Positions 3,482-61,689 are shown, numbered from the stretch's first letter. The stretch: DNA of 64,000 bases from Promethearchaeota archaeon (GCA_048939465.1 JBHLPL010000001.1:23562-87561), one strand, 5' to 3'. The notes: generated by a model from the letters alone, not told the origin. Made by a program: numbers and translations.

Positions 3482-3742
3482 AACCCCTCTTGAGTGTTTA
3501 TGGCAAGGGTCTGTGACCCTGAAAGGAGAGTTGACATAGGTAACAGGCTCTTAGGCTATATGCTTAAAGAAGGGCTATCCCGCAGTCTGTGGCTGCTTGT
3601 GACGGGAATTTAACCGGCCCCAAACCTCCCCCAATGTTCGTTACTCTGAAAAGAGACTTGTTAGCGTTTCAAAGTCCGAGGGAGAAAACCCCTTGCGAAA
3701 GCTGGAGGTAGTTCACTCAGAGAAGAAGGATTTGTAAAACTT

Positions 3743-24399: not shown

Positions 24400-24500
24400 A
24401 TTCAGTTCCCTACAACAGATTAATCATTAACTCCTTGTGAGTTTCTCTTTATTTTACTTTCCCCCGCCCTCCGGCATTTGACGTTAAAGATAAATACGGT

Positions 24501-25763
24501 TTGTTTGTAATAGATATGCGTGGTGATACTTTGGCCAATGAACCACCATCTTCACTTTCTGAATCGCAGAATTCTAGAATGCACGAACATGGCGAGGTCA
24601 AAATTGGTAAGGGCGAGATAGCCATAATTATGTGCGTGGCAGCGATATACGTTTATCTTCGTTTCTTCTATGCAGCGGATACCCTTTTTGGTTTCCCTAT
24701 GGATTACTTACTACTGCCTATAGGATTCACTATAGGTGTTTGGCTTGCACTTAGAATGAGTGATCTGGCTATCAAGGGACTGGCTGCAACAGCTATATAC
24801 TTCGGCCTAAGCCTATATGTAGTAGGAGTCCTATCCAGCATTGCATCTAACACACCGGAACTCGTAGTCGGGCTTTTGATGTCATGGAGGGGTTACACAC
24901 ACCCAGATCCGGTTCTAGGTTTGACTCTAACTGAGACTTCTATCTTGACGGTTCTTACAGCCTCTGGTTTCAACACCCTTCTTCTAAGCCTAATAATCCT
25001 TTTGGGCTCAAGGAAGAGTGGATATGTTAAAGTGCCTCGAGAACTAATTCTTAGCGAATCTGAGCTCATAAGGAGCACGTTTATTGCAATAATGATGATT
25101 TTTACGTTTGGTCTTATACTCCATGTTTTTCCGATAGGCGGGGGTGAAGGCGGAATCGGATATATCCCCCCCTTAGTTGCATTCTGCTTATTGCTGATAT
25201 ACCTTTTCTACGTCGTTCAGCTGTTGAGAAGAAAAGAACATGATTTGATGGTTTCGCCAGCAAGAACTGAATCTCCAAAACCTTCAGAAAACGAACGCCG
25301 TGAACGCACCGCCGGTATTTCTATGAAAATGGCGGTCGTTTTCATGATTGTGTCTTTTCTTGGGATTTTTGCTGCTGGAGAGGTGATCACAAGCACAGTG
25401 GAACTTACTATTGAACACTTCGAGCTTGAGGTTCCCGTTGTCGCTCTCATAGTGGGTGCCTGTGGTTCGATACCTGAGCATGGCATCGCACTGGTTGCTG
25501 CGAGGAGAGGGCAACTTAATGTAGCTCTGGGCAATATCATTGGCGGATTGGCGCAGATAGTGTTGATGGTCTTGGGTGTTGTGGGTATTGTTGTTCCGAT
25601 ACCACTCGACGCCTTTGTTTTGTTTCAACTGATAGTAACCGGCTGGGTCCTATACTATGTCAAACGTGCAATACTTGATGACGAACGTCTCGACTTCATG
25701 GAGGGATTCATAATCCTGATCTTCCAAATAATTGCGTTCTCACTACTACTGGGACTTCTATGA
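24501..25763 (+). CDS. Ca2+/cation antiporter (CaCA family, Na+/Ca2+ exchanger-like)
   Basis: two alpha-repeats with the CaCA signature (SSIASNTPELVVG and CGSIPEHGIALVAA); ~10 TM helices; start likely downstream of 24501. Confidence 0.6.
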   Translation: MFVIDMRGDTLANEPPSSLSESQNSRMHEHGEVKIGKGEIAIIMCVAAIYVYLRFFYAADTLFGFPMDYLLLPIGFTIGVWLALRMSDLAIKGLAATAIYFGLSLYVVGVLSSIASNTPELVVGLLMSWRGYTHPDPVLGLTLTETSILTVLTASGFNTLLLSLIILLGSRKSGYVKVPRELILSESELIRSTFIAIMMIFTFGLILHVFPIGGGEGGIGYIPPLVAFCLLLIYLFYVVQLLRRKEHDLMVSPARTESPKPSENERRERTAGISMKMAVVFMIVSFLGIFAAGEVITSTVELTIEHFELEVPVVALIVGACGSIPEHGIALVAARRGQLNVALGNIIGGLAQIVLMVLGVVGIVVPIPLDAFVLFQLIVTGWVLYYVKRAILDDERLDFMEGFIILIFQIIAFSLLLGLL

Positions 25764-25786
25764 TCCTAGATCGCTTAAAAAAACTC

Positions 25787-26503
25787 TCACTTCTTCATCA
25801 TGATTGCAATCGGCACGCTTGCCTCGCGCCATTTGGCATACTTCCCCTCGTATTCGATCTGAATCTCGTGCCGTCCATGATCCCCGAGTACAATCAATAG
25901 AGTTCCAGGTATGGCTTGCTTAAAGAGAGACAGAATCCAGTTATCCGTACGTGTAATTAATTTCTGGGCTATTTCTTCTGGTGGCTGAGTGCTGTATTTT
26001 TGATACATGGCCTCAAAATCCAGAAAGTGGAGCCAAATGAAGTCCACCCTGTTAATCACTTTTATCGCTTCAATATACGTTCTCATGTCATCCTCGGCTG
26101 CTTTTGCTTTGGTTTTTCCCATGAACATTACTAAATCCTCTGCCCTCCCGATCATGGTAACGTTTTTCCTGCTCTTAGCCAAGAAATCCAACAAATGGAA
26201 CTTCTTCTTTGAGGCACTTCCGTAGACTATCTCGTTTAAGACATTGAACGTATGAGGGTCTTCTGTATTTAATACCAGTATCGCCTCTGAGGTTTTTATC
26301 AAAAACTTGGGCTTATAATATGTACATTCGAAAAGTCCAAAGTTGTCGAAGATGGCCAATATTACATGGTCTGATCTGAATTCATCTATTCCCGTAATGG
26401 GTGGAGGGATTTTCTTTGGAGGTTGCAGTCCTAGCAAATGGGATAGAGTAGCGGGAATTTGTGTCATGTTCCCTTCAAACGTAGGTAATTCCTCTTTGGC
26501 CAT
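25787..26503 (-). CDS. alkaline-phosphatase-superfamily (metalloenzyme/phosphodiesterase-like) protein
   Basis: 238 aa; C-terminal LLIVLGDHGRHE resembles the conserved DHG metal-binding motif of the AP/type-I phosphodiesterase superfamily. Confidence 0.35.
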   Translation of the reverse strand: MAKEELPTFEGNMTQIPATLSHLLGLQPPKKIPPPITGIDEFRSDHVILAIFDNFGLFECTYYKPKFLIKTSEAILVLNTEDPHTFNVLNEIVYGSASKKKFHLLDFLAKSRKNVTMIGRAEDLVMFMGKTKAKAAEDDMRTYIEAIKVINRVDFIWLHFLDFEAMYQKYSTQPPEEIAQKLITRTDNWILSLFKQAIPGTLLIVLGDHGRHEIQIEYEGKYAKWREASVPIAIMMKK

Positions 26504-26595
26504 TGGACTTCATCTACCGATACCTGAACGATAAGTAAGTATTAGCTTTAAATAACTTCTTTCATATATTAAATTACACACTGCGAGGGACACAC

Positions 26596-26691
26596 ATGTC
26601 CAGGAGATGGAGAAGAATATTAGGTGGGCTCTTCTTTGTTATCCTCATGTTGGCTGGGCTTTTTACATACCTAGTACTCTACTTCTTGTAA
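26596..26691 (+). CDS. possible small single-TM protein (31 aa), absent from the ORF track
   Basis: MSRRWRRILGGLFFVILMLAGLFTYLVLYFL: positive N-terminus plus one hydrophobic helix; sits in an otherwise empty 200-nt gap. Confidence 0.2.
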   Translation: MSRRWRRILGGLFFVILMLAGLFTYLVLYFL

Positions 26692-26711
26692 TGATTAATT
26701 ATTAATCGTGC

Positions 26712-28097
26712 TTGCAGGATTTTGTTTGTAAAACCTGCGAACGAAAGCAGATAATTGAGGGATTGAAATTGCCGGGACTTGAAATTACTTTGCTTGGTGG
26801 TGCCCGTGAAGTTGGCCGATCTTGCATCTTGATATCTGGGGGGAGTTCACATTTGCTATTAGATGCAGGCATAAAACTGGGTGTAGATCCTCCAGAGAAA
26901 TACCCGCTAATTCCGCCTGAAACACCTGATGCCATAATAAACTCTCATGCGCATCTCGATCACACAGGTTTTGTGCCCGCTTTTGTGAAGAGGTATGATT
27001 GCCCGGTGTATGCTACACCGCCCACGCAAGATATATCTGAGCTGCTGTTTATGGACTCAATCAAAATCTCTAAGGAGGCTGATGAAGAACCACCTTATGA
27101 CGTAGAGGATGTTATGGCCGTAAGAAGACGCGCCATTGATTTGTATTATAACGTTCCTATTGAAATGCAGGATGCAAGAATCGTGCTGTACAGAGCCGGA
27201 CATATCTTAGGCTCAGCCATGATAAAGCTTGAACTTGCAGGGATCTCCATTCTCTACACTGGAGATTTCAGTATGAGAAATACGCGTACGCTTCAAATGG
27301 CGGATTTCAACGTAGGAAAAATCGATGTTCTTGTAATAGAATCCACCTATGGGTCACCCTCAGATAAGCATCCGAGCCATAAAAGAATTGGTCGTGAATT
27401 TGCCAATGCCGTAGACAGGACAACAAAACGCGGGGGAAAAGTAATCATTCCAGTTTTTGCCGTCGGACGAGCTCAGCAGGTAATGCTAATGCTGGAAGAT
27501 TATATGCGGAGCAACTATATCGATCAAGTGAATATCTTTGTTGATGGGCTTGTCAGAAGAGTAAATAGAGTCTATGAACTCTATTGGGAGTGGTTGAAAC
27601 CGGAGATTCAGAAAAGGATACGATATACTCATAGTAGTCCATTAGAATCTGAGATCTTTCATGTTGTGGGAGACCGCGATGAACCGATAGAATATGATGG
27701 ACCATGCATAATCATCACTACTTCAGGAATGGTTGAGGGAGGACCGGTCTTACATTACCTTAAGGAGTTAGGTAACGATCCCAGTAACTTGATATGCTTA
27801 ACTGGCTATCAGGCCCCAAAGACTCGTGGAAGAGCTCTTCTTGATGGTTCGAGAGAACTAACGGTTCACAATAACACAAAAATCGACATTTCTGCAGAGG
27901 TTTTAACCTTTGAATTTAGCGCTCATGCTGATCGGTCAAACATTCATAGGTTTGTCTCCATGCTTAACGGGGTGAGGCATGTTCTATGCGTCCACGGTGA
28001 AGAAGCGAAAACGATAGCGTTGGCAAATAGCATAAAGAAATTGAAAAAAGTAGATGCATACGCTCCAAAAATTGGAGAGACTATTGATTTAGTATGA
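26712..28097 (+). CDS. beta-CASP family metallo-beta-lactamase ribonuclease (aCPSF2/RNase J-like, no KH domains)
   Basis: MBL motif INSHAHLDHTG (HxHxDH); further His/Asp motifs (FSAHAD, VLCVHGE); ~460 aa. Confidence 0.8.
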   Translation: MQDFVCKTCERKQIIEGLKLPGLEITLLGGAREVGRSCILISGGSSHLLLDAGIKLGVDPPEKYPLIPPETPDAIINSHAHLDHTGFVPAFVKRYDCPVYATPPTQDISELLFMDSIKISKEADEEPPYDVEDVMAVRRRAIDLYYNVPIEMQDARIVLYRAGHILGSAMIKLELAGISILYTGDFSMRNTRTLQMADFNVGKIDVLVIESTYGSPSDKHPSHKRIGREFANAVDRTTKRGGKVIIPVFAVGRAQQVMLMLEDYMRSNYIDQVNIFVDGLVRRVNRVYELYWEWLKPEIQKRIRYTHSSPLESEIFHVVGDRDEPIEYDGPCIIITTSGMVEGGPVLHYLKELGNDPSNLICLTGYQAPKTRGRALLDGSRELTVHNNTKIDISAEVLTFEFSAHADRSNIHRFVSMLNGVRHVLCVHGEEAKTIALANSIKKLKKVDAYAPKIGETIDLV

Positions 28098-28358
28098 TTC
28101 TACCGGTTTTCTAACTGTTGCAATAGTCCTGTCTGAATGACCATTGCTTTTCATCTCATCTATGTTTAGCCACACTTCATTCTCCGGGATGTCCGGATTG
28201 GCAAGAGCACTAAAAGAAAACCGTCTCTTGTTAACGACGATCTCAATAGTATTGCCGACATTCACTCCTATGCTTCTGAGGATCTTTGCGTTCAAAACAG
28301 CTTCACCGGTCTTAACCTCTGTTTTCTGCATTAGTCTCATTCTCTTTTCCATATCCAA
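28089..28358 (-). CDS. small AbrB/MazE-like (swapped-hairpin) domain protein
   Basis: 89 aa; GEAVLNAKILRSIGVNVGNTIEIVV resembles the SpoVT/AbrB fold pattern. Confidence 0.3.
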   Translation of the reverse strand: MDMEKRMRLMQKTEVKTGEAVLNAKILRSIGVNVGNTIEIVVNKRRFSFSALANPDIPENEVWLNIDEMKSNGHSDRTIATVRKPVESY

Positions 28359-28400
28359 ACCTCAGTTAAGCAGTACTATAGGGAACCTCCAGGCTTAAAT

Positions 28401-30137
28401 CTATATGGTTTTTCCGAGCTCTTCAAACCCGATTCTTTCCTTGAAAAACTCGCCAAAAAGCTTGCCTAGATCTTCTATTTTGTTTCGCAACTGCTGCCAG
28501 CTATCTCGATTTCTTATCGTTACCGTATCATCCTCCAGAGTTTGATAGTCTACCGTTACTGCTACTGGAGTCCCGATTTCATCCGACCTGGCATATCTAC
28601 GTCCGATGCTTCCAGACACATCCAATTCTGCCCTAAATCCTTCTTCAAGTAACATGTTATAGATGTCTTGTGCGACTTCGGGGAGTTTGTCTCTTTCCAA
28701 TAGAGGAAATACTGCAATCTGTATTGGCGTAATGGCCGGAGGAAGCCTCAATATGATCCTCTTCTCTCTCTCAGAGTAAGCACATTCCAAAGCCGAATAT
28801 ACGAGTCTATCCGCCCCAAATGAGGGTTCTATGACGTGTGGAATGAATCTGGAACCAGATGCCTTCTCCGTTCTCTCATCAAAAGTTAAGAGTTCAGAAC
28901 CTACGCGGTTTTCTCCTATTAAATAAAAACCGTCCTCTCTTACAGATTTCTGGACAATCTCGGGATCACTTCCTTTCAGAGAAGAAAGAATCTCTCCTGT
29001 TGCGTTACCGAACTTCTCTCTTATCGCCTTTACGTGTGGCTTAATTATGGTTCTCTTTACAATCTTAGGCTGTTCGTATTGTTTGAAAGCACGAAGATCG
29101 GTTCCACTAAATTTCATATGTCTGCCTAGGTCCCAGTCAGTCCTGTAAGCGTGTCCCGCTACCTCTGACCAACCAAATCTCTCCAAAAGAACTTGATGGT
29201 CTATAGTCTGTTTGGAATAATGCGCTCTTTCCCATGGAAGTTGCTCCCTAAATCGCTGTTTCTCTGGAGGGACACCAAGACTTGAAACGAAAGACTTTGA
29301 TATAACTAGAAAATAAGCTATCCACTCACTGACAACTACTCCCCTTTTAACAGCTTCTCTTGCTGTAATGACTTCTGTATCGCCTTCCTTTTGCTGGGCA
29401 TCCGACGTCAGAATAGCCAGTTCCTCATTCTCTACATCAACTAACCTAGCACATGAAGCCAACTCGCTCGGATCAATGAAGACTTCAACTTCCATAATGG
29501 TGAACTCACGAAGGCGGATTACCCCCTTTCTGGGTGAAATTTCGTTTCTAAACGTACGACCAATCTGAGCAATACCTAGAGGCAGTTGTTCACGCTTTGC
29601 ACTAAATATGCGCTTGAAGTCTACGAACATTCCCTGAGCTGCTTCCGGTCTAGCGTAACCAACATTCCCTCCGTACGGGCCAATTGTCGTTCTAAACATC
29701 AGATTGAATAGTTCAACTTTGCCCAGAGATCCACCGCAATCCGGGCAGGTAATGTTATTCTCTTTTATCAAACTATCGAGTTCTTCTGTGGTAAGCCCTT
29801 CAACGATCTTACCTATAGCGTTCTCGACCAAATGATCTGCTCTATACTGTTTCTTGCAATCCAGGCAGCCAACCATTGGGTCCGTGAAGTGATCTGAATG
29901 TCCGCTTGCCTTGAAAACCACTTGAGGCATAATTATGGGAGAATCTATCTCCACAAACTCTTGTTTAGTTATAAACCACTCACGCCACTTATCTTCCACA
30001 TTCCTTTTGAGTATGGCTCCGATCGGTCCATATGTTACGAATCCACTCAATCCGCCATATATCTCGAAACTTGGCCAAAGTATACCGCGTCTTCTACAAA
30101 GCTCCATGACTTTCTCGTATTTATCCAACGTCTTCAC
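28401..30137 (-). CDS. glyS: glycine--tRNA ligase (archaeal/eukaryal-type class II)
   Basis: 578 aa; N-terminus KVMELCRRRGILWPSFEIYGGLSGFVTYGPIG and class II motifs typical of dimeric GlyRS. Confidence 0.9.
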   Translation of the reverse strand: MKTLDKYEKVMELCRRRGILWPSFEIYGGLSGFVTYGPIGAILKRNVEDKWREWFITKQEFVEIDSPIIMPQVVFKASGHSDHFTDPMVGCLDCKKQYRADHLVENAIGKIVEGLTTEELDSLIKENNITCPDCGGSLGKVELFNLMFRTTIGPYGGNVGYARPEAAQGMFVDFKRIFSAKREQLPLGIAQIGRTFRNEISPRKGVIRLREFTIMEVEVFIDPSELASCARLVDVENEELAILTSDAQQKEGDTEVITAREAVKRGVVVSEWIAYFLVISKSFVSSLGVPPEKQRFREQLPWERAHYSKQTIDHQVLLERFGWSEVAGHAYRTDWDLGRHMKFSGTDLRAFKQYEQPKIVKRTIIKPHVKAIREKFGNATGEILSSLKGSDPEIVQKSVREDGFYLIGENRVGSELLTFDERTEKASGSRFIPHVIEPSFGADRLVYSALECAYSEREKRIILRLPPAITPIQIAVFPLLERDKLPEVAQDIYNMLLEEGFRAELDVSGSIGRRYARSDEIGTPVAVTVDYQTLEDDTVTIRNRDSWQQLRNKIEDLGKLFGEFFKERIGFEELGKTI

Positions 30138-30388
30138 ATTCCTGGCCGTCTTTATCCTGCAAAGAAATTCAGCCAGCAGGGATGGCGACAGACTACACTG
30201 AGTTAAATATGATTCTGGATATTAAATTTTGGGTAAAGAGACAAGAATCGAACTCCGTTAGTTTTTTCGACGGAAAACCCCTCCGCGGAAGCACGTGGGC
30301 AGAATCATCCATTTTCTGTCTCATATTCTAAACGTTAGCTAAACCTTATTCATAGTAACAATTGAGACAAATCAAGAAAGATTTTTGA

Positions 30389-31555
30389 ATGTCCGGTAAT
30401 TTAAATATTAGAGCCACTGAGGTGTTATGGATGCAAGTCTCGGCACAAAGGTTAGAGAGCATCAGGAGAATAATGACCAGAGAAGGAATAGATGTCTTGT
30501 TTTCTACAAAAACAGAAAACATATTCTACCTAGCTGGATTTGCCCCCTCAATAGTACCCTCTCTCGCGATCATCGTACCCGTGGATAATGAGGCAACTCT
30601 AATAGCCCCCTCTAATGTGCTGGCCCTAGCAGATGAGCCCTCAAAAATCAAAAGCATAAGACCCTACTTTCTGCATCCGACAGAAGGTGAAAGTGAAAGA
30701 AAGAGACCGGGCTTTCTTGATACTATTAAAACTGTACTGGGTGAAAACGGTCTGGAAAAAGGAATCATCGGGTTAGAATATGACGATATCTCGCTTTCTG
30801 TTTTTAATAGATTGAAGGATACACTGCCCGATGCTGGTTTCAAAGACTCATCCCCTCTAATTTGGGAAATGAGAATGATCAAAGAAGAATCTGAGCTCGA
30901 AACGATGTCTAAGACTATAGAGGTCGCTGAAATCGGATTAAGGACTGCCATCGAGATCATACAACCGGGTATTACAGAACTTGAAGTTGCTCTGGAGCTC
31001 CGGAATACAATGATCAGAGCCGGTGCCTCAAGAGACTTGTGCCTAGGCAGCGTGACATCTGGTCCACGCGCAGGTTCTCCCCGTGCGGCCACAGAGTCTA
31101 GAAAGATCGAGAAAGATGAGTTTGTGGTTATTAATGTCTGCATAATGTTTGACAATTACTGTGGACATGTAGCACGCACGATTTTCACAGGTACACCCAG
31201 AAAGGAGTGTAGAACACTCTTCAACGCAGCAAAGAACGTACTAAACGTCGCTTTGAAAGAAGCCAGACCTGGAACTACTGCCGGCGATCTTACTGTCGCA
31301 GTCTGCAAGAGGATAAGTAAACTGGGGTATATTGACTATCACAATTATCCGATAGGCTATGGTGTTGGCTTGAATCCACGTGAACCTCCGATCCTCGAGA
31401 CTGGTGATAATACACTTCTTCGCCCGGGAATGGTCTTGCACGTATATTCTAATATTTACATTCCTGAAGTATGGGGAATCAAGATTGGAGGACAGATACT
31501 TGTTGCTGAAGGAGAGTCGAAGATTATGGAGAAACTGCCCTTGGAGATGATTTGA
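30389..31555 (+). CDS. M24 family metallopeptidase (Xaa-Pro aminopeptidase/prolidase-like)
   Basis: creatinase N-domain plus pita-bread C-domain; metal ligand motifs HYPIGYGVGLNPREPP and DNYCGHVARTIF. Confidence 0.8.
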   Translation: MSGNLNIRATEVLWMQVSAQRLESIRRIMTREGIDVLFSTKTENIFYLAGFAPSIVPSLAIIVPVDNEATLIAPSNVLALADEPSKIKSIRPYFLHPTEGESERKRPGFLDTIKTVLGENGLEKGIIGLEYDDISLSVFNRLKDTLPDAGFKDSSPLIWEMRMIKEESELETMSKTIEVAEIGLRTAIEIIQPGITELEVALELRNTMIRAGASRDLCLGSVTSGPRAGSPRAATESRKIEKDEFVVINVCIMFDNYCGHVARTIFTGTPRKECRTLFNAAKNVLNVALKEARPGTTAGDLTVAVCKRISKLGYIDYHNYPIGYGVGLNPREPPILETGDNTLLRPGMVLHVYSNIYIPEVWGIKIGGQILVAEGESKIMEKLPLEMI

Positions 31556-31564
31556 TTTGGAGGT

Positions 31565-32266
31565 TTGAGAGTGCTCAAGGCTGTTGCGACTGACATTGAC
31601 GGAACCATAACGTACGCTAACAAGCACCTAAGCTTCGAAGCAATAGATGAGATAAGACGACTCGAAGAAAACGGAATACCCGTTATCTTGGTAACCGGAC
31701 ATATGCTTTGTGTAGCCGGGGCTTTAAGCGAATATATCGGGACTTCTGGTCCGCTAGTATGCGAAAATGGCTCCATTGTGACTTCGAAGCGATGGAAAGC
31801 TCCGATGATTTTAGGATCCAGAAGGAAGACAGATGAAGCTCTTGCCGTCTTAAAAAGGGAATTAGGGAAGCAAGTAGAAGTGAAACCTCACATAGATTAC
31901 CGTGTAGTTGATATCTCTCTACAAAGAACTTTTGATGTAAACAAGGGAAATCTGATTCTGGAGAAATACAAGTTGGGGGTGTACCTCACTGACAGCGGCT
32001 ATGCAATACACATTACGGACAGTGATGTGAATAAGGCCAAGGGCTTGAGGAAAGCTGCTGAAATGATAGATATTGAGACTAGTGAAATCGCTGGCATTGG
32101 AGACGGCAAAAACGATATCCCCCTGCTTGAGGAAACCGGATACAGTATAGCTTTAAACAACGCTCCTGAAGAGCTAAAAAGGTTTGCGGACTACGTTACA
32201 AGAAATAGCTACGGAAAAGGATTTGCTGAAGCCGTAAACCATCTAAGGCAAAATCGCCTAATATGA
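31565..32266 (+). CDS. HAD-superfamily phosphatase (archaeal phosphoglycolate phosphatase/Cof-like)
   Basis: motif I ATDIDGTIT (DxDGT); motif IV GIGDGKNDIPLL; likely TTG start. Confidence 0.7.
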   Translation: MRVLKAVATDIDGTITYANKHLSFEAIDEIRRLEENGIPVILVTGHMLCVAGALSEYIGTSGPLVCENGSIVTSKRWKAPMILGSRRKTDEALAVLKRELGKQVEVKPHIDYRVVDISLQRTFDVNKGNLILEKYKLGVYLTDSGYAIHITDSDVNKAKGLRKAAEMIDIETSEIAGIGDGKNDIPLLEETGYSIALNNAPEELKRFADYVTRNSYGKGFAEAVNHLRQNRLI

Positions 32267-32336
32267 GCCAATATTGCGAACATAGGCAACAATACGCCAA
32301 CTCAAAAAAATGAGAATGAGAATCAATCATGAACTC

Positions 32337-32744
32337 TCAAATGATCTTATTAATCTCTCTTGCGGCCCTGTCAGCTGCAATATATGCTGTTTGTGGAGAG
32401 CCTTGGCTTGTAATATAGCACATAAATAGTGCTTTTTGTCCTACGGCCGCAACAACTAAGTGCCCCATACCTTTCATGTTGGTTGCAATGAACCTATCTT
32501 GAGTAGCATTGATTGTTGAATACTTTATGCCCTGAACTACAACACTGGGCGTTTTGTTTGTAAAAGCTGAAACAATATCGGGTCCTTGAACTGTCCAGTT
32601 TTGTGTTTGGTGGATTATTCCCCCATTCATGCCAACTAATGCTGTGGCTGTTATGTTTGGATCAGACTGCATCAGGTTACTAGATATAGACGCAACATCT
32701 GCCATTATTATACCTCCGAGACCTTTCAGCTGTTTCGTTCTCAA
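32337..32744 (-). CDS. profilin
   Basis: 135 aa; alignable block-by-block to eukaryotic profilin: ATALVGMNGGIIHQTQNW ~ AAAIVGHDGSVWAQSASF; VVVQGIKYSTINATQDRFIATNMKGMGHLVVAAVGQKALFMCY ~ [42 protein letters not shown]; C-terminal helix. Confidence 0.6.
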   Translation of the reverse strand: MRTKQLKGLGGIIMADVASISSNLMQSDPNITATALVGMNGGIIHQTQNWTVQGPDIVSAFTNKTPSVVVQGIKYSTINATQDRFIATNMKGMGHLVVAAVGQKALFMCYITSQGSPQTAYIAADRAAREINKII

Positions 32745-32777
32745 TTGAATATAATCTCTCTTTAGTCATTTAAGTTT

Positions 32778-33245
32778 TTGGCAAGTTGCAAAGGGGTAAA
32801 ATATTGTTTGGCCAACAGTCCTTCTGAGAAGTTCAATCTGCCGAATAACTTACAAAATGGAAAGACATGTTCCGTGAGACTTATAAGAAACCAGGAAACA
32901 GATTGCTCAACGAGGGCAGCTATCTTGCAGGAAAGTCAGGAGATTGAAAAACGAGAAGAAGAGAAAACAAGTCCAATATCGGTACTTTCTTTTATTCTCT
33001 TCTGCGCCGTTGTAGTCTATCTGCTTCAAGCTCAGTATATTGGATTATTCCCTTTCCGACCATTAGATTTTCCTGACCGAGGCACCATGTTGATCTCCCC
33101 ATCTGGTCTCTATCTGATATATTGGGTCGGCATGATGGGATTGCTTTTGGGGCTTTATAGGGAAACAAAGGATAAACTGCTTCTCGGAGTGGTATTCTTC
33201 TTTGCGTCTCTGATATTCCTTTTCATCCTAATCTCCACATTATGA
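32778..33245 (+). CDS. hypothetical small membrane protein (start uncertain)
   Basis: C-terminal half has 3 hydrophobic helices; N-terminal part may be untranslated. Confidence 0.3.
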   Translation: MASCKGVKYCLANSPSEKFNLPNNLQNGKTCSVRLIRNQETDCSTRAAILQESQEIEKREEEKTSPISVLSFILFCAVVVYLLQAQYIGLFPFRPLDFPDRGTMLISPSGLYLIYWVGMMGLLLGLYRETKDKLLLGVVFFFASLIFLFILISTL

Positions 33246-33316
33246 CAGCTGAAGCTGATAATAACGCAACCTTAAAACGTTAGGCCTTATTAGTAAAAAG
33301 ACGGGATGGATAAAAC

Positions 33317-34276
33317 ATGACTCTTGAAGAAATGATCCTCAAGAAAAGATTGAAATATATTCTGTTTGGAGGAAAAGGCGGTGTGGGGAAAACAACCGCT
33401 GCTGCTGCGTGCTCAGTATGGGCCGCTCAACAAGGAAGAGAGACACTCATAATAAGCACCGATCCTGCACATAGCTTATCGGACAGCCTAGCTCAGGATC
33501 TAAGTGGCGGAGACATCAAAGAAGTTCGAGGGGTACCTGATCTTTATGGATTGGAGGTGAATCCTCAAAAGGAGTTCTCAAAATATCAAAAAAGCCTTGA
33601 GTCGGCTTCTGATTCTTCTGAAATCGCAGGTATCCCGGGTTCTGAATTACTTGAGGATTTGGGAGGACTTACCCCACCAGGTGCAGATGAGGCCCTAGCA
33701 TTTGCAAAAGTGCTAGAATTCATCGAAAAAAGTGAGCACGACCTCATCATATTTGATACAGCACCCACGGGTCACACCCTGCGCCTACTGAGTCTGCCCG
33801 ACCTCCTGAATAGCTTCTTTGGCAAACTTCTCACTTTTAGGCTCAGGCTGTCCAGAGTCTGGGGAAGGATTAAGAGACTCTTTGGCCGAGGGGAGGAAGA
33901 GGAGGACAGGACTCTTGAGACTTTAGAAAGACTTAAAACCACCATTGATGCGGCTGGCAAAGAACTCAAGGACGAAACGAAGACAAACTTCGTCATAGTC
34001 ATGATTCCCGAACTCATGGCTATCTATGAGACTGAGAGGCTGCTTTCGGCATTGTACGAATACGAGATTCCTGCAAGTTTTATTCTTGTAAATATGGTCT
34101 ATCCAGATATACCAGATTGTTGGTTCTGTAAGTCCAGAAAATCGATGCAGGATAAACATCTGAAGGAGATTAGAGAACTTTACGACGAGTTTACGATCAT
34201 AGAGATTCCCTTGGCTGAAACAGAGATTCGAGGAATAGAAGGATTAGAAAGGATCGGCAAAATCCTTTTCATCTAA
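33317..34276 (+). CDS. Get3/ArsA-family ATPase (tail-anchored-protein targeting factor homolog)
   Basis: P-loop GGKGGVGKTT; A-loop/switch DTAPTGHTLRLL; conserved CxxC pair (DIPDCWFCKSR) characteristic of Get3 dimer zinc site; single ATPase domain (319 aa). Confidence 0.8.
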   Translation: MTLEEMILKKRLKYILFGGKGGVGKTTAAAACSVWAAQQGRETLIISTDPAHSLSDSLAQDLSGGDIKEVRGVPDLYGLEVNPQKEFSKYQKSLESASDSSEIAGIPGSELLEDLGGLTPPGADEALAFAKVLEFIEKSEHDLIIFDTAPTGHTLRLLSLPDLLNSFFGKLLTFRLRLSRVWGRIKRLFGRGEEEEDRTLETLERLKTTIDAAGKELKDETKTNFVIVMIPELMAIYETERLLSALYEYEIPASFILVNMVYPDIPDCWFCKSRKSMQDKHLKEIRELYDEFTIIEIPLAETEIRGIEGLERIGKILFI

Positions 34277-34301
34277 TTTACTCTTTGAAAGGGGATGTGA
34301 A

Positions 34302-34712
34302 TTGACTGTATACACTAAATCGTTTGAAGTCAAGACAAAGAACCGTATAGAATGGGTTGACATCACAGAAAGCATCAGAGATATTGTTAAGAGTTCAAAT
34401 ATTCTGAATGGGACTGTCGCTATCTTCACAAAACACACGACCACAGGGATCACGATTAATGAGCATGAAAGCGGCCTACTCCATGATTTACGCTCCAAAC
34501 TTTCCGAACTCATTCCACGAGGAGCTGGTTATCTCCATGACAGGGTCGATGACAATGCTGACTCTCATCTTAAGTGTTCGATACTGGGAAATTCGGCAAG
34601 TGTACCTTTGGTTGACGGGTCCCCCGCCCTAGGTACGTGGCAATCTGTCCTATTTGGAGAGTTTGATGGGCCAAGAACTCGAACTGTTTTGGTCGTTGTT
34701 TCTGGAGATTAA
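34302..34712 (+). CDS. YjbQ/UPF0047 family protein (secondary thiamine-phosphate synthase-like)
   Basis: 136 aa; WVDITESIRDIV, TKHTTTGITINEHESGLLHDL, HLKCSILGNSASVPLVDG match UPF0047. Confidence 0.7.
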   Translation: MTVYTKSFEVKTKNRIEWVDITESIRDIVKSSNILNGTVAIFTKHTTTGITINEHESGLLHDLRSKLSELIPRGAGYLHDRVDDNADSHLKCSILGNSASVPLVDGSPALGTWQSVLFGEFDGPRTRTVLVVVSGD

Positions 34713-34715
34713 GAA

Positions 34716-35951
34716 CTAAGACTTGATTCCATGTATCGGAAAAACATCATCTTTAATTCTCTTGACCATTTTCTTTGTGTAACCAAATATGGCTCTCCGC
34801 ATGCTGGGGCTCACTTTCATGGTCGGCGTATATTGGTCAAATATTGTTTCTGGAGCTTCCTCTCCTGTCAATTCTCTGTACTCTTCACGCCAGGTGGCAG
34901 GAGCTGCTTTTGGAATAGCTGTTTCAGAAACTACAGAAACTATAATCGTCCAGACTCTTGTGGTTGCATTAATACTATAGCCGCCGCCGCCCGTTGCCAA
35001 ATACCTACCCTTTGAATGTTTATGTGCCAGGAAATGCATTGTTGCAGCAATCTCTGCATAGGCTGTTGTGGTAAGCCCTAGGTGAGCAAGCCTATCCAAG
35101 AAGTGCGCATCAGCACCGCACTGATGTACGATTACTTCCGGTTTGAATGCATCAACAAGGGGCGGAACGATTTCTCTAAACGCGTAGAGATACTCCTTAT
35201 TTGAAGTGTAGGGTTGAAGGGGAACATTCACTGAATAACCCTTCGCGTCACTCTCTCCAATATCATCGACAAAGCCTGTGCCTGGAAAAATATAGCTTCC
35301 GCTTTCATGAAGTGATATTTTCAATACTTGTGGGTTCGAGTTGAATATTCTTTGAACACCATCAGCGTGATGCGCATCTATGTCTAGATATAGAACCCGC
35401 GATATGTTGAATTTCTCAATTAAATACTGAATTGCGATCGCCACGTCATTAAAAATACAGAATCCTGATGCCTGTTCTCTTGAAGCGTGATGGAACCCAC
35501 CACCTGGATTCCACGCGTAATCGACTTCCCCGTCCATGATTAGATCAGCTGCCTTAAGTGTTGCCCCCACAGCCATCTTCCCGGCTTCATACATCCCCTT
35601 GAAAGCAGGCGTATCTCCCGTATCTAGGTAGCCCGTTCCGGAGAGACTGCCTTTGCGAATTCTCTCTATATACCTCTTACTGTGGACAAGTTCTATCTCT
35701 TCGTCAGTTGCAATTCTTGGCTCGTATAAGAAGATTCTTGGCTCATATAGGAAGACATCCGATCTTTCGAATCCTCCAATCTCCCTAAAGAGCTTATAAT
35801 GAAGTGGTATTCTCACTTGGTTTAACGGATGTAGTTTTCCGAAATCGTATTTTACAAAATCATCGCTGTAAATGAACGCGGTCTTATCACGCATTGTCTT
35901 TTCTTCAATTTTGTCGCTGTCGATGAAGGCTTTATTATACATATTCTTCAC
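34716..35951 (-). CDS. histone deacetylase-family enzyme (HDAC/AcuC/acetylpolyamine amidohydrolase-like)
   Basis: GGGFHHA, charge-relay DIDAHHADG, zinc ligands; contains an in-frame 7-aa tandem repeat FLYEPRI-FLYEPRI. Confidence 0.85.
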   Translation of the reverse strand: MKNMYNKAFIDSDKIEEKTMRDKTAFIYSDDFVKYDFGKLHPLNQVRIPLHYKLFREIGGFERSDVFLYEPRIFLYEPRIATDEEIELVHSKRYIERIRKGSLSGTGYLDTGDTPAFKGMYEAGKMAVGATLKAADLIMDGEVDYAWNPGGGFHHASREQASGFCIFNDVAIAIQYLIEKFNISRVLYLDIDAHHADGVQRIFNSNPQVLKISLHESGSYIFPGTGFVDDIGESDAKGYSVNVPLQPYTSNKEYLYAFREIVPPLVDAFKPEVIVHQCGADAHFLDRLAHLGLTTTAYAEIAATMHFLAHKHSKGRYLATGGGGYSINATTRVWTIIVSVVSETAIPKAAPATWREEYRELTGEEAPETIFDQYTPTMKVSPSMRRAIFGYTKKMVKRIKDDVFPIHGIKS

Positions 35952-36078
35952 TTTTCCATGATGAACCGATTCTACTCTCCACTTGAATGGATATAAACCC
36001 GCTGATTTGAATCACAATGCTAAATTGACAGAAAAAACTTATCAACCTTTGTGTCGAAACATTTCTTGAGGTAATAAG

Positions 36079-36864
36079 ATGAAGTGTCCCCGATGCGATT
36101 ATGAGATTTCAGCAGATCAATTAACATGCCCGCAATGTGGTTTTAGAATGACGATTGAAAAACTTGAACGCGTAATTCCCTTGCTTAGACGCCCCGTTAG
36201 AACAACTGTAGAACCGTTATCTACCCTGCAGAGACTGAAAGGGACGTTCATTTCTCCAGCTTTGACCTTCTGGAACATTTCCAAAATCCCTGACAAAAAG
36301 GGATTCTTGTTCATTTTATTCTTCAATGCACTCCTTATTTCTCTCAATTACCCCATCTTATGGACGCACATAAATGTAATAGGATCTGAAACCTTCGTCG
36401 GAATTGTAAGTCTCCACATATGGGGGAGCTTTATTGGCTTGTTTCTATCTGGCCTTGGCATATTATTGCTCGCGTGGATTCTGATCGTTTTTGCATTCTG
36501 GACAATCTCCAGAGTGACTGGAGGAAAAGGATCATATCGAGCAACCTTTCTGGTCACAAGCTATGCCTTTGCCCCTCTTATAATCGCAAGGTTAATTTCT
36601 CTGGTTGTCTTGGCAGGTGGACTCCCAAGCGTTACCATTACCGAAGCCATGGCTCCTGGAGAATTGGGCACAGCACTGATACCTTTACTCAATTCTGTAG
36701 TCTGGACTTATTCCCTTGGTGTTGAGACTTTCTTTTGGCTTTGGTCTGCACTGCTTTCTTCATTGGCAATAAGAGAAACTCAGAATACGTCAACTCTCAA
36801 AGCGGTAGTAATGGCTTACGCTGTTATCATATGCTCTCTACTAATACTTTGGACAATTCATTGA
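36079..36864 (+). CDS. zinc-ribbon-containing polytopic membrane protein (possibly Yip1-like)
   Basis: N-terminal CPRCDYEISADQLTCPQCGF zinc ribbon followed by ~5 TM helices; family assignment tentative. Confidence 0.35.
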   Translation: MKCPRCDYEISADQLTCPQCGFRMTIEKLERVIPLLRRPVRTTVEPLSTLQRLKGTFISPALTFWNISKIPDKKGFLFILFFNALLISLNYPILWTHINVIGSETFVGIVSLHIWGSFIGLFLSGLGILLLAWILIVFAFWTISRVTGGKGSYRATFLVTSYAFAPLIIARLISLVVLAGGLPSVTITEAMAPGELGTALIPLLNSVVWTYSLGVETFFWLWSALLSSLAIRETQNTSTLKAVVMAYAVIICSLLILWTIH

Positions 36865-36931
36865 AGATAGGTCTGGGAACTGGCTTGGTCCATATTTGAA
36901 AGTCCTGTAATCTCTGAAGGGCTCAAGTAGG

Positions 36932-37954
36932 TCATCGGATCATCACTATGAGTTTGATGGGACTGGCCAGATTCTTATCATTAACAAAAATGAGATCTCC
37001 TTCTTTCACTCCGGTATCTTTCAATACGATGCTATCCGGGACAATCTTGCCCTCGATAATAATCTCAGGATTCTGAAGGCCATAGGTCATTATCAGCCTG
37101 TTTTTTAATTCTTGAATGGGTTCTTCCAGGTTCACGACATATTTGACGCCTACGGTGCGGTACTTAGGACTGCAAACAACACAGCTCGGATTACGGACAA
37201 GCCTAATCTTTGTAAAAGACTGGCTCAATCCATCGTAAAATAGATAGTTGTCAAGCAGATCCTTGCGTTCTAAAATAATCTTTAGCGTTTCTTGTGCTTG
37301 GATTCCTCCGACTACTGTAGTTGTTGTGGAAATCATTGGAAATTTCTCCTTCTCTTGCTCTTTCTCTTTTCGCGCCTCTCCAGGAAGAGTACAGGCCTTC
37401 TGTAATCTTTCTTTTGGTATCAATGGTTGGCATTCCAGGCAGGGCGTTTCAAAGGGGATGATTACCTGAACGTTCCCCCACCAGCCAAATAATCCTCCAT
37501 GAATTAGAGGCTTATTCAAGTGAACACACATGGAATTCAGCCATCTGCGTGCCTCAAAAGTATCTAAGCCTTCCACGATGACCGAACTTCTCTGGTAGAC
37601 TTCTTTATCTATCGACCGCATATCCTTCATATAGGTACTTACCTTGACTTCCGGATTGAGTTTCTCAAGGAATTCCTCAGCAGCCTCCACTTTCAATCTT
37701 CCAATATCTTCTTCTCTGAAAAGTATTTGTCGGTTCAAATTCGAAAGCTCAATTGTGTCGTTGTCTATAAGAATCAACTTTCCTATTCCCATCAACGCCA
37801 GATCAAGAGCAACTACCGAGCCTAAAGCCCCCACTCCTACGACCAAAACCGTTGAATTGCGAATCAATCCTTGGTCCCATTCTTCGAGAAGTTCCTGTCT
37901 ATGATAACGACCTTCTCCTTCTTTCAAGCCTGCCCCCTCCTGAGGTGTTTCCAA
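36932..37954 (-). CDS. ubiquitin-activating E1-like enzyme (ThiF/MoeB/UBA family) with C-terminal beta-grasp-like extension
   Basis: Rossmann nucleotide motif VLVVGVGALGSVVALDLALMGIGKLILIDNDTIELSNLNRQ; catalytic region; two CxxC zinc pairs (TPCLECQ, PSCVVCSP); ~90-aa C-terminal extra domain. Confidence 0.8.
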   Translation of the reverse strand: METPQEGAGLKEGEGRYHRQELLEEWDQGLIRNSTVLVVGVGALGSVVALDLALMGIGKLILIDNDTIELSNLNRQILFREEDIGRLKVEAAEEFLEKLNPEVKVSTYMKDMRSIDKEVYQRSSVIVEGLDTFEARRWLNSMCVHLNKPLIHGGLFGWWGNVQVIIPFETPCLECQPLIPKERLQKACTLPGEARKEKEQEKEKFPMISTTTTVVGGIQAQETLKIILERKDLLDNYLFYDGLSQSFTKIRLVRNPSCVVCSPKYRTVGVKYVVNLEEPIQELKNRLIMTYGLQNPEIIIEGKIVPDSIVLKDTGVKEGDLIFVNDKNLASPIKLIVMIR

Positions 37955-38364
37955 GTAGCATACCTTTTGATATACTCTTTTACTTTCTCCTTGAATTCTC
38001 TTGGCGACTCACGCATTTCCTTTGCAGCCACTCGATTCAGAGGGTCGTGAGGGTTGGGAAAGCTCAGGACGTTTCTTATGGCCTCGATTACGCCAACTAA
38101 ATTTATGCTTGGAGACCAATCTTTCCCCAGAATGCCCAGACATATTCTTCCCTCCCTGGTGATATTTGGATGCCAAATTGGAGTCAAGAACCGAGCTTTG
38201 GGAGGTTTAAATGGATAGCTTCTGTCTACTTCTAACTCGATTTGGAAGACCCCTCCATCGTAAACACTGGTACCTAGAATGAATCCACGCCATTTTGTGA
38301 GGTCTCCACTTAGCGGTTGAAATGAAGGTTCCTCCTCCTCTATGCTCTTAGCTTCAAGTGCCAA
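37924..38364 (-). CDS. ubiquitin-conjugating enzyme E2 (UBC fold, catalytic Cys present)
   Basis: FKPPKARFLTPIWHPNITREGRICLGILGKDWSPSINL: canonical HPN motif and active-site Cys; overlaps E1 by 31 nt. Confidence 0.8.
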   Translation of the reverse strand: MALEAKSIEEEEPSFQPLSGDLTKWRGFILGTSVYDGGVFQIELEVDRSYPFKPPKARFLTPIWHPNITREGRICLGILGKDWSPSINLVGVIEAIRNVLSFPNPHDPLNRVAAKEMRESPREFKEKVKEYIKRYATWKHLRRGQA

Positions 38365-38540
38365 GCGCTCTAAGAATGCCTCTCTGTCTAAAATCTTTCC
38401 ATACCTCCCTCTGAATATGTAAAATCACAAAGAAATAAGTATGTGAAAAATATTAAAACCTTATAGTTCAGGATCGATCCTCCTGAATGATACGGCCTTC
38501 TATCCTCCAGATGAAAGATCCTAAGCGAAATAGAAAGTAT

Positions 38541-38783
38541 TTAAGGATCTCCTCCTTCGGTTCTAGTAATAAGATACACCTTATCTCTTTCGACGCACCC
38601 TGCTTCTTTAAGTGTCGTACTATCCAGCTGTTCCATACCTTTGAATGCAAGGACAAAGGTTGCTTCTGGTATACGTCTCTGTCTGGCAATTATTCTCTTG
38701 AGTTCACCGAATGAAATATTAGGCGCCACATCAAGTGTGGTCTTCATTCCACCAATTGCAGAGACAATCTCTACCTCCATCAT
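38541..38783 (-). CDS. ubiquitin-like beta-grasp protein with C-terminal GG-DP (pro-ubiquitin)
   Basis: alignable to ubiquitin over its length (MEVEIVSAIGGMKTTLDVAPNISFGELKRIIARQRRIPEATFVLAFKGMEQLDSTTLKEAG..LITRTEGG) and ends ..TEGGDP. Confidence 0.65.
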   Translation of the reverse strand: MMEVEIVSAIGGMKTTLDVAPNISFGELKRIIARQRRIPEATFVLAFKGMEQLDSTTLKEAGCVERDKVYLITRTEGGDP

Positions 38784-38798
38784 AAATCACCCCAATTA

Positions 38799-39038
38799 CT
38801 ATTTTACCATAAGATGTCTAGTGGAGAGTTTTCTTTTGCAGAAGGGACATTGGCCCTTCGTCTTAACCCATTCCAGCAGTTCAATCTTGTGAGCTTGGCT
38901 TCCGCAGTATGGACAGTATATTGTCTTCTCGCCGGGTCTTATTGGCAGAAGGCAAACGATGCACCTTTCTGGCTCCCAAAGCCACTCTCCTAAGACTCTA
39001 ACTTGCTTTATTACGAATCTGTCAGCTGCCTTCGACAT
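38799..39038 (-). CDS. Cys-rich RING-like zinc-finger protein (candidate E3)
   Basis: CIVCLLPIRPGEKTIYCPYCGSQAHKIELLEWVKTKGQCPFCK: CxxC-x12-CxxC-x4-H-x15-CxxC; paralogous to N-terminus of the next gene. Confidence 0.5.
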   Translation of the reverse strand: MSKAADRFVIKQVRVLGEWLWEPERCIVCLLPIRPGEKTIYCPYCGSQAHKIELLEWVKTKGQCPFCKRKLSTRHLMVK

Positions 39039-39181
39039 TTAGTATCTCCAAAGAAGATTAATTAAGAACACTATTAAATACTTTTGCGAATGCCCCCACT
39101 CGGGGCAGTTCAGACTCTTTGCTCTGAATTGATCATCTCCTACAGCCTTGGAATTGCAGATTAGTCGAAAAACCAACAGAG

Positions 39182-39913
39182 CTAACCCCCCAAAACCTCT
39201 TCAAACATATCAAGCAAAACATAGCGAGTTGAGGGATCAATGGCAACAGTTCCATAAGTTGGCACACCCAATAGTCTTCCCACAAGTTCTGGGTCCAATG
39301 AGTGGGGAAGGTCTTGTTTGTTTGCAATTGCAACAACCTTTGCATCAGGAACACGTTCTTGGACGAGGCTCATGATTCTCTTCCTGGTCCTGGCTACACT
39401 CGTTACAGACGAGTCCGTAACAACGATGATAATATCTGAGCCCCTGATCATTACGTCCCAGAATCGACCAAATCGTTCTTGTCCAGCGAAATCCCACACG
39501 ATCACTTTTACTGGCGTTTCCACCCCTTCGAGATTTTTGATATTGACCATTAGGGTAGGAGTATGGTTTATGGGAACTTCTTCATCAAAAAGCAATTTCA
39601 GCAGTGTTGTCTTGCCTGCACCGCCAAATCCCAAAAAGGAGACCTTAATGATCCTCATTAGCTGGCTTACGGAAAGTCTCATCTTACAGAAGGGACATTT
39701 ACCTTTGGTCTTAACCCATTCAAGTATTTCTCTTCTGTGAGCAATACATCCACAGTTTGGGCAGTCTATTGTCTTATCGTTAGGTCCTATTGGCAGAAGG
39801 CATACTATGCAATTCTTCGCTCCCACTTTTTCCACCCAGTCTTCCGATCTGTGGATATTGCAGAGCGTCAAATCGATTAGGAAATCCTGTCTCTCTTCAC
39901 TGGGCCACCTCAA
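39182..39913 (-). CDS. RING-like zinc finger fused to small GTPase
   Basis: N-terminal CIVCLLPIGPNDKTIDCPNCGCIAHRREILEWVKTKGKCPFCK; GTPase G1 GFGGAGKTTL, G3 WDFAGQERF, G4 ANKQDL. Confidence 0.7.
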   Translation of the reverse strand: MRWPSEERQDFLIDLTLCNIHRSEDWVEKVGAKNCIVCLLPIGPNDKTIDCPNCGCIAHRREILEWVKTKGKCPFCKMRLSVSQLMRIIKVSFLGFGGAGKTTLLKLLFDEEVPINHTPTLMVNIKNLEGVETPVKVIVWDFAGQERFGRFWDVMIRGSDIIIVVTDSSVTSVARTRKRIMSLVQERVPDAKVVAIANKQDLPHSLDPELVGRLLGVPTYGTVAIDPSTRYVLLDMFEEVLGG

Positions 39914-40074
39914 ATCTTACAAGATTTTGTAGCCTAACTACATAATTGACACTTGTAGTATAAAAGATTTGTGATGCGCTATTAATTCACAGCAAAGAAG
40001 TGTGTAAAACACGGTAACCCGCGGTTTCTTTGTTTAGAGTGAGTTGAAGGTACGATTAAATCTCCTTTGAGTAA

Positions 40075-40623
40075 TTGAGTACTACGAATGTTTTTAAGTA
40101 TTCTACTACAAATATGTATTGCGTTTGTGAGGGACTGAATTTGAGCAGTTCAAAGCGGAAGCAATTTGAGATAAAGCTTGAAGTAATCAAAACTCCTAAG
40201 GGTGAAGTTCCCACGGTCAAAAGCTTAAGGCAGGTAGTTATGGGTCTAAATGAATTGAATAGTGATATCGTTAATGTGAGGTCTCAGATTATGGGGGAAA
40301 TAAAGGATTTAAAGCGTGATGTTACCGCAGTAAAGAAGTTGCTTGCCGAAGAGGCGGTTACTTTTGATGCCATCAATGAGAAGTTCACAGACCTTAACAA
40401 CAGCTTGGAGTCTCTATTAAAGCAAAAAACAGATGATAAAACCCTGAAGGCTGTTAAGGGGGTAGGGGCTACTCTAAACTCTCTTGAGACTCAGCTTTCT
40501 GAAATGGCGAAAAATGTGAAAGATGGACTTGCGGAACAGGCCAAAAATGTTGCTAATGCCGTAGGCAAACTCTACCTTTTCCTTGAAAAGGCAGAAGAAG
40601 GAAAGAAGAAAAAGACCTCCTAG
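40075..40623 (+). CDS. coiled-coil protein of unknown function (start uncertain)
   Basis: heptad-rich, K/E-rich sequence; no motif recognised. Confidence 0.35.
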   Translation: MSTTNVFKYSTTNMYCVCEGLNLSSSKRKQFEIKLEVIKTPKGEVPTVKSLRQVVMGLNELNSDIVNVRSQIMGEIKDLKRDVTAVKKLLAEEAVTFDAINEKFTDLNNSLESLLKQKTDDKTLKAVKGVGATLNSLETQLSEMAKNVKDGLAEQAKNVANAVGKLYLFLEKAEEGKKKKTS

Positions 40624-40633
40624 GCCTCTCTTA

Positions 40634-44939: not shown

Positions 44940-45100
44940 CTATTACACCTCATTAGTCACTGAAAGGTTGTACAACACACACAATTAAAGCTTACGAAAT
45001 TACATCAAATACGGCTTTTCATCACCTAAGTTTTTTAGGTTTGTTCTTCTAATAGTTAACTAGCCTATCGCAATGTCTACAGAATCCTATTTTCCTGAGG

Positions 45101-46264: not shown

Positions 46265-46278
46265 ACTGGTGATATATA

Positions 46279-52729: not shown

Positions 52730-52750
52730 CAGCGAGTGAGAAAAAGAATA

Positions 52751-61644: not shown

Positions 61645-61689
61645 TGTTGAAGAAATCTCTTGAGAAAGCCCATCAGCCTGGCTTTTGGT

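Follow-up and report, generated by a model that had tools for sequence, protein, structure and literature searches.

Background

Profilins, small proteins by which the assembly of actin is controlled, have been reported in most Asgard genomes, and the Hodarchaeota, which are placed within the Asgard kingdom Promethearchaeati, are the group often placed nearest to eukaryotes. The structure of an Odinarchaeota profilin in complex with rabbit actin (5ZZA) was reportedly described by Akil and Robinson in 2018, and profilins from Loki (profilin-1 and profilin-2; 5YED, 5YEE, 5ZZB), Heimdall LC3 (6YRR) and Thor (7PBH) have been solved as well. Human profilin carries a polyproline platform made of aromatic residues on its terminal helices (W3, Y6, W31, H133 and Y139). 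To our knowledge, neither nucleotide-exchange activity nor delivery of actin to formins has been established for Asgard profilins.

The published assays concern other Asgard profilins than the one described here, and most of them used rabbit actin. As summarised in PMC8410842, actin polymerisation is inhibited by the profilins of Odin, Loki and Heimdall LC2, which respond to PIP2 but do not bind the polyproline of VASP. Heimdall LC3 and Thor profilins bind polyproline weakly, and about 5% of Asgard profilins have an extended N-terminus that modulates their binding of PIP2 and polyproline (PMC8410842). In L. ossiferum, Lokiactin and an Odin-like profilin are recovered together by co-immunoprecipitation (bioRxiv 10.1101/2025.11.30.690169), and actin filaments have been seen in cultured Hodarchaeales by cryo-tomography and immunofluorescence (bioRxiv 10.1101/2025.02.26.640444).

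Here we describe a profilin gene in a 64-kb stretch of DNA, the whole of which we call the window. Our reading, to which we give a probability of about 0.88, is that the gene encodes an Odin-like Asgard profilin with its own BRE/TATA promoter and a start at ATG 32705 led by a Shine-Dalgarno sequence, and that the protein would bind actin, would be relieved by phosphoinositides (PIP) and would take no part in recruitment through polyproline.

Family membership and fold

The initial annotation had placed a 135-residue ORF at 32337-32744 on the minus strand and had aligned it over its length with eukaryotic profilin. The ORF has the extent claimed, and the two segments IKYSTI and KGMGHLVVAAVGQKALF are both found in its translation. 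When searched with the Pfam profilin model (PF00235), which had been suggested as a check, the protein scores 29.4 bits against a gathering cut-off of 25 (E = 9.5e-7), with the match spanning residues 6-117 of the protein and positions 6-121 of the 127 in the profile. This was the sole Pfam family reported, even at E <= 10; an NCBIfam scan of the profilin returned no match. In a sequence search of the PDB, the best solved relative was chain P of 5ZZA (E = 4.4e-30, 45% identity over 107 residues), followed by Thor 7PBH (5.6e-13), Loki 5ZZB (1.8e-12), Loki 5YED and 5YEE (about 3e-12) and Heimdall LC3 6YRR (6e-6), while eukaryotic profilins reached an E-value of about 1 at best.

A word-indexed homology search gave 7 close relatives; the wider family was taken instead from HMMER, run exhaustively over 1.84 billion representatives, where 73 relatives reached E <= 1e-3, with 44% identity for the best of them. 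From 35 aligned single-domain relatives, 23 of which match PF00235, we built a family profile. Searched against the PDB, this profile found five Asgard profilins only (E about 1e-16 to 1e-36), and when aligned by hhalign with human and Acanthamoeba profilins it gave a probability of 79% and an E-value of 1.6e-5 over 114 columns at 15% identity. The proposed full-length alignment with eukaryotic profilin is therefore right as to family, although at 15% identity that similarity is weak; it is strong to the Asgard profilins. Judged by these comparisons, the ORF encodes a profilin-family protein. The identification as profilin is correct, and it concerns a family that has been structurally and biochemically characterised and whose orthologues are already annotated.

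A 1,558-residue protein with 15 matched stretches (P0029) was considered as a poly-profilin and rejected: it comes from the bacterium Algoriphagus, where it is named 'beta strand repeat-containing protein', and its match is most likely a spurious similarity to repeated beta strands. In an 850-residue protein (P0049), four stretches match the beta-sheet part of profilin.

The AlphaFold2 model, computed on the family alignment (pLDDT 89.2, pTM 0.80), contains the N-terminal helix (residues 2-14), the central beta-sheet and the C-terminal helix (104-121) that had been described beforehand, together with a short helix at 41-50; its seven strands lie at 18-25, 30-33, 54-57, 60-67, 71-76, 81-88 and 92-99. 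In a Foldseek comparison with the PDB, the top structure was 5zza_P, labelled as the OdinProfilin/rabbit actin complex, with a TM-score of 0.92 and an rmsd of 0.9 Å. Loki profilins followed at TM 0.87-0.88, Thor gave 0.75 and Heimdall LC3 0.69; the Acanthamoeba, yeast and S. pombe profilins (1ACF, 1YPR, 3D9Y) gave 0.80, and many plant profilins were also found. The assignment was to be given up if the predicted fold disagreed with the profilin alpha/beta sandwich, and that sandwich is what the model predicts. We have high confidence in a predicted profilin fold that is nearly superposable on OdinProfilin.

A short profilin of the Odin type

The window protein belongs to the short Odin type, without the Loki-loop and without a real N-terminal extension. 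It has 122 residues where Odinarchaeota profilin (5ZZA) has 119-121, both proteins do without the loop and the extension, and the motifs GxKYS and ATN..G.GH are common to both. The two differ in class (Odinarchaeia as opposed to a Hodarchaeota-like class) and in 55% of their residues. The Loki profilins share the fold and, at E-values of about 1e-12, the family, but they are about 135 residues long and have a Loki-loop; where two relatives (P0025 and P0042) have an insertion of 8-10 residues, the window protein has a gap. The profilins of Heimdall LC3, which is the most distant solved Asgard profilin from the window protein, and of Thor are likewise alike in fold and family. They have N-terminal extensions of their own of 20-24 residues, whereas the apparent extension of the window protein is non-coding: no translated extension precedes helix 1, since the leader evolves as non-coding sequence and a Shine-Dalgarno motif precedes the internal ATG (see below).

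With eukaryotic profilins (human PFN1, Acanthamoeba profilin I and yeast Pfy1) the window protein shares the alpha/beta sandwich, the PF00235 family and the G-x-K-x-S-x-I motif of strand beta4, in which human G-Q-K-C-S-V-I corresponds to G59-I-K61-Y-S63-T-I65, so that K69, S71 and I73 pair with K61, S63 and I65, approximately, given the divergence of the alignments. The best-conserved columns of the family (Q58-S63, R71-N76 and G79-H82) fall in strands beta4-beta6, which we take to be the actin-binding face, as in the bovine profilin-actin complex.

Identity to the eukaryotic proteins is about 12-19%, and the aromatic residues with which they bind polyproline are replaced in the window protein. 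Using the human profilin-1 sequence as verified against 4X1L, hhalign and MAFFT pair W3, Y6, W31 and H133 with V4, I7, H32 and E117; these pairings are approximate, as the sequences are very divergent and the methods disagree locally. The window protein ends short of the equivalent of Y139. We also considered the invariant W37 as the counterpart of human W31, an assignment that neither hhalign nor MAFFT backs. Taken together, the alignments are suggestive of the absence of the eukaryotic aromatic platform, in which case recruitment through polyproline in the style of formins or VASP would not be expected, or would be very weak. The missing residues are consistent with the failure of Odin and Loki profilins to bind polyproline.

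Actin and the likely function

Within the 64 kb of the window, neither tblastn with an actin from Hodarchaeota as query nor Pfam scans, which took in nearly every long ORF, turned up an actin gene, and no gelsolin was found there. A scan covering one genome per prokaryotic species did identify actins in Hodarchaeota MAGs: at least nine of their contigs (including L040, with the ORF at 2956-4110, L060, L061, L074-L077 and L079) encode an actin that shares 60-64% identity with that of rabbit. Because the window itself holds no actin, the regulated actin cytoskeleton that had been proposed from the profilin has to be drawn from related genomes and from published work.

Actins 91-100% identical to rabbit actin were also found on contigs of 0.7-2.9 kb assigned to ordinary bacteria and one haloarchaeon (L009-L019, L025, L029, L038, L042, L044, L066, L072, L082, L085 and L088). 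These are most likely eukaryotic contamination of the assemblies. Actins found on longer contigs, from Myxococcales, Polyangiaceae and cyanobacteria, share 66-88% identity with rabbit actin and may have been genuinely transferred.

By analogy with the Odin and Loki profilins, the function of the window protein is most likely to bind monomeric lokiactin and so restrain its polymerisation. It would occupy the barbed-end face of the monomer, with contacts presumably made by strands beta4-beta6 (VQGIKYSTI, RFIATN and GMGH) and by the first part of the C-terminal helix, and binding would be expected to suppress spontaneous nucleation and slow the elongation of filaments. This block would probably be relieved at membranes by phosphoinositide binding, K61, the equivalent of human K69, being kept; on the same analogy, phosphoinositide relief is possibly a feature of this protein.

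One alternative accepts the profilin fold and ancestry and supposes that the protein does not regulate actin in this organism, serving perhaps mainly as a phosphoinositide or membrane binder or acting on some other partner. It draws on the absence of the polyproline platform and of a linked actin gene in the window, on the fact that profilin neighbourhoods are not conserved across lineages, and on the origin of all the biochemistry in other Asgard profilins, assayed mostly with rabbit actin. Set against this are the position of the most conserved family columns in beta4 to beta6, the alignment of the K-x-S-x-I motif of beta4 with human K69/S71/I73, the co-purification of an Odin-like profilin with Lokiactin in vivo and the presence of actin in Hodarchaeota. 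We consider this alternative unlikely.

The surrounding genes

Eukaryotic signature genes are dense in the window: besides profilin, it carries genes for Ras/Rab-like and Arf-like GTPases, Get3/ArsA, Yip1, a ubiquitin-RING-E2-E1 operon, and ESCRT-I, ESCRT-II and ESCRT-III components with Vps4. This eukaryote-like arrangement around the profilin gene is kept among Hodarchaeota relatives. In other Asgard lineages, the neighbours of profilin are unrelated housekeeping genes, and for that reason we take the proximity in the window to reflect a gene order specific to this lineage, not a functional module. An operon link between profilin and actin or ESCRT genes was considered and rejected or given little weight.

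A broader proposal would place profilin in a functional membrane and trafficking island of about 40 kb (Get3/ArsA, Yip1, the ubiquitin operon, RING-Arf, ESCRT and Vps4), with a polyproline-independent profilin retained by the lineage nearest to eukaryotes. The synteny among Hodarchaeota relatives speaks for it, and in another Asgard an Arf GTPase is recovered together with Lokiactin (bioRxiv 10.1101/2025.11.30.690169); the unrelated neighbours in other lineages and the putative promoter and terminator of the profilin gene itself speak against it. If the proposal were true, control of actin monomers would be co-regulated with membrane remodelling driven by ubiquitin and ESCRT, and polyproline-guided delivery of actin would have arisen after the split from the lineage proposed as closest to eukaryotes. 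We regard it as improbable and keep to lineage-specific gene order.

The ubiquitin and ESCRT genes form a near-complete set, at 36932-39038 (minus), 44325-47025, 51176-53548 (minus) and 59839-62927. They comprise an E1 (ThiF), an E2, ubiquitin and a small RING protein, two Snf7 proteins, Vps4 (MIT, AAA and Vps4_C domains), Vps25 of ESCRT-II, an EAP30 protein (Vps22/36), Vps28 and a UEV/E2-like candidate for Vps23. A further protein, 601 residues long, combines a B-box zinc finger, a Vps36 GLUE-like region and EAP30. Clustering of ubiquitin and ESCRT genes has already been described in Asgard archaea (PMC9192718).

Next to the ubiquitin operon, at 39182-39913 (minus), lies a gene for a RING finger (residues 34-77) fused to an Arf/Arl-like GTPase (83-217), which is kept in all the Hodarchaeota relatives. 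The best PDB matches of the GTPase part are Arl2, Arl3 and Arf1 (about 1e-13 to 1e-15). The architecture is reminiscent of eukaryotic TRIM23/ARD1; in the literature searched we found no description of the fusion. A second fusion, at 57903-58760 (plus), joins a longin domain (Fuz_longin_1) to an Arf-like GTPase, and two adjacent genes at 5090-5755 and 5831-6349 (both minus) encode Ras/Rab-family GTPases that score 171 and 184 bits against PF00071. Between the ubiquitin operon and the ESCRT genes, at 40075-44282, are an 868-residue HerA/DUF87 ATPase, a 351-residue protein of no known family and a 182-residue coiled-coil protein with faint matches to EzrA and DUF7260; the three occur in identical order in the Hodarchaeota relatives. 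Within the ESCRT cluster, the 1,318-residue ORF at 47146-51102 (plus) has a single weak CarboxypepD_reg domain as its sole Pfam match.

Nearer to profilin, a small hydrophobic ORF lies on the opposite strand directly upstream of the profilin start (32778-33245, plus). It is 155 residues long from a TTG and 106 residues in the calls for relatives, it belongs to no Pfam family, and its position is kept in three loci (L002, L005 and L006). At 35713-35755 (minus), a 21-nt tandem duplication in a gene of the histone-deacetylase family repeats the heptapeptide FLYEPRI; the protein has 408 residues in relatives. Between the genes for an M24 peptidase and GlyRS, relatives have a 114-residue gene where the window has about 120 nt, an indel of about 490 nt (window 30247-30366 compared with L001 12691-13301). 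Rfam and tRNA scans of the window found nothing, and its tandem repeats have no bearing on the profilin gene.

Where translation begins

The maximal ORF extends on the minus strand from a TTG at 32744 to a TGA at 32339-32337 (32337-32744). The length of 135 given in the initial annotation is correct as the number of codons in this ORF; it probably does not hold for the product, the coding part of which has 122 residues. This CDS occupies 32337-32705 (minus; 122 codons plus TGA, MADVASISS...REINKII) and corresponds to a protein of about 13.0 kDa with a pI of 8.9. The remaining 13 codons, from the TTG to the ATG (32706-32744, minus), form an in-frame leader with a non-coding pattern across orthologues.

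The gene, together with its flanking sequence, was aligned with its counterparts in five orthologous loci whose proteins are 84-93% identical, giving six loci in total. The ATG at 32705, a Shine-Dalgarno-like GGAGGT 6 nt upstream of it (32712-32717, minus) and a 40-nt upstream block (GCCAAAAA-[C/T]TTAAATG ... GATTATA) are nearly invariant, and the GGAGGT is identical in all six. Synonymous sites of the profilin CDS differ by about 40% among the same loci, while the upstream block is nearly unchanged. The block includes a putative core promoter at 32767-32782 (minus), near-invariant in the six loci, which consists of a BRE-like GCCAAAAA and a TATA-like CTTAAATG, the latter reading TTTAAATG in relatives; a second TATA-like element, GATTATAT, lies at 32756-32749 (minus). 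If these are BRE/TATA elements, known archaeal promoter geometry would place the start of transcription near 32744, as for the element at 32767-32782, or near 32727. A run of seven Ts at 32304-32310 (minus), 27 nt past the stop codon, is kept in all six loci (alignment columns 571-577) and is a plausible oligo-T terminator. The neighbours of the gene are a HAD hydrolase gene, convergent with it, and an ORF for a small membrane protein, divergent from it; the gene looks monocistronic, and tblastn found no second profilin copy in the 64-kb window. The profilin would thus be transcribed alone from its conserved BRE/TATA promoter and translated from ATG 32705 with the help of the Shine-Dalgarno sequence.

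Shine-Dalgarno-like motifs 3-10 nt before start codons are common across the genes of the window, and the protein lengths predicted from them equal those annotated in relatives for the M24 peptidase (374 residues), the HAD protein (231) and E1 (331). For profilin, 122 residues are called in five of the seven close homologues. An alternative is that the 135-residue product is made from TTG 32744 and begins with a short regulatory extension in the manner of Heimdall LC3 and Thor. The frame is indeed open from the TTG, an ATG stands at this position in L007, two homologues (P0004 and P0007) are annotated with an extension of 13-14 residues, and regulatory extensions do occur in a small share of Asgard profilins. 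Against this, the TTG is a TTA in L001, the leader codons show a pN of 0.14-0.28 that exceeds their pS of 0.05-0.10 in comparisons of the window with orthologues, and their variable columns are distributed 5/5/3 over the three codon positions, with no third-position bias. The invariant GGAGGT lies just ahead of the ATG, the predicted TATA would put the start of transcription at or inside the leader, and in the 122-residue form the first residue to align is residue 6 with Pfam and residue 14 with Odin profilin. In L007, the spacer of the leader region also contains a 3-nt indel. The longer product is, in our judgement, very unlikely. As the leader evolves like non-coding sequence, a Shine-Dalgarno motif precedes the ATG and such motifs are used throughout the window, we place the CDS at 32705-32337; translation most likely starts at ATG 32705 to give 122 residues, and codons 32744-32706 are probably a 5' untranslated leader without any N-terminal extension of the protein.

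Relatives and their annotation

The closest proteins, 84-94% identical, are named 'profilin family protein' (for example MFX0067720.1; P0001, P0004) and come from MAGs labelled 'Candidatus Hodarchaeota archaeon' and 'Promethearchaeota archaeon'. Over about 20 kb (window 23194-42595, from DNA ligase to the HerA-like DUF87 gene), the gene order matches that of these relatives at 78-80% nucleotide identity. The orthologues have the gene order, promoter and Shine-Dalgarno sequence of the window; they differ in that some entries carry an N-terminal extension of 13-14 residues, which is probably spurious. An exact look-up of the 135-residue sequence in a collection of 15 billion proteins found it absent. 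The window is thus a different species-level genome of a known lineage, related to the MAGs at roughly the genus or family level. The next-nearest relatives, at 34-44% identity, are from Jordarchaeaceae, Freyarchaeota, Asgardarchaeia and Borrarchaeum. The earlier statement that archaeal profilins are essentially confined to Asgard lineages agrees with the named relatives, which comprise these four groups together with Hodarchaeota and Promethearchaeota.

In the JGI/IMG data, several members of the clusters of P0008 and P0010 are labelled 'predicted regulator of Ras-like GTPase activity (Roadblock/LC7/MglB family)'. Proteins of that family are abundant in Asgard genomes, and like profilins they are small alpha-beta-alpha proteins of distantly similar topology. 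If the labels were right, the window protein would be a small-GTPase regulator instead of a profilin; Roadblock and MglB structures do appear in the fold search at a probability of 1.00, and the window contains five small GTPase genes. The Robl_LC7 model (PF03259), however, does not match the protein at E <= 10, and it matches none of the 35 relatives. On superposition, Roadblock and MglB structures give TM-scores of 0.62-0.70 and rmsd values of 4.7-6.5 Å, as opposed to 0.80-0.92 and 0.9-2.3 Å for profilins, and the window protein has 45% identity to a protein whose crystal structure is that of a profilin bound to actin. We consider it highly improbable that this is a Roadblock-type protein. 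Since the HMM and fold tests indicate profilins, the Roadblock labels on Asgard profilin homologues are likely a systematic misannotation.

The profilin gene is real and under strong purifying selection. Over the 122-codon body, dN/dS between the window and each of the five orthologues is 0.055-0.14, the variable columns are distributed 27/8/59 over the three codon positions, and the reading frame is unbroken in all six loci. Several spurious ORFs of at least 110 residues overlap real genes in this window of 43% GC, so ORF length is no proof of a gene; it is homology and conservation that establish this one. Although chance ORFs of like length are thus present in the window, the chance that this is one of them, or a decaying pseudogene, is negligible in view of the low dN/dS, the intact frame, the conserved expression signals and the strong homology.

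Conclusions

With profilins reported in most Asgard genomes and the orthologues of this one already annotated, the present locus leaves current understanding unchanged. Its value for annotation is that the start codon is fixed and the 'Roadblock' mislabels are corrected. The window is confirmed as Asgard and close to Hodarchaeota, from a genome that has kept a profilin of the compact Odin type, lacking the polyproline platform, and this profilin is a candidate for biochemistry with a cognate Hodarchaeales actin. Profilin belongs to the eukaryotic signature proteins that connect Asgard archaea with the emergence of the actin cytoskeleton of eukaryotes.
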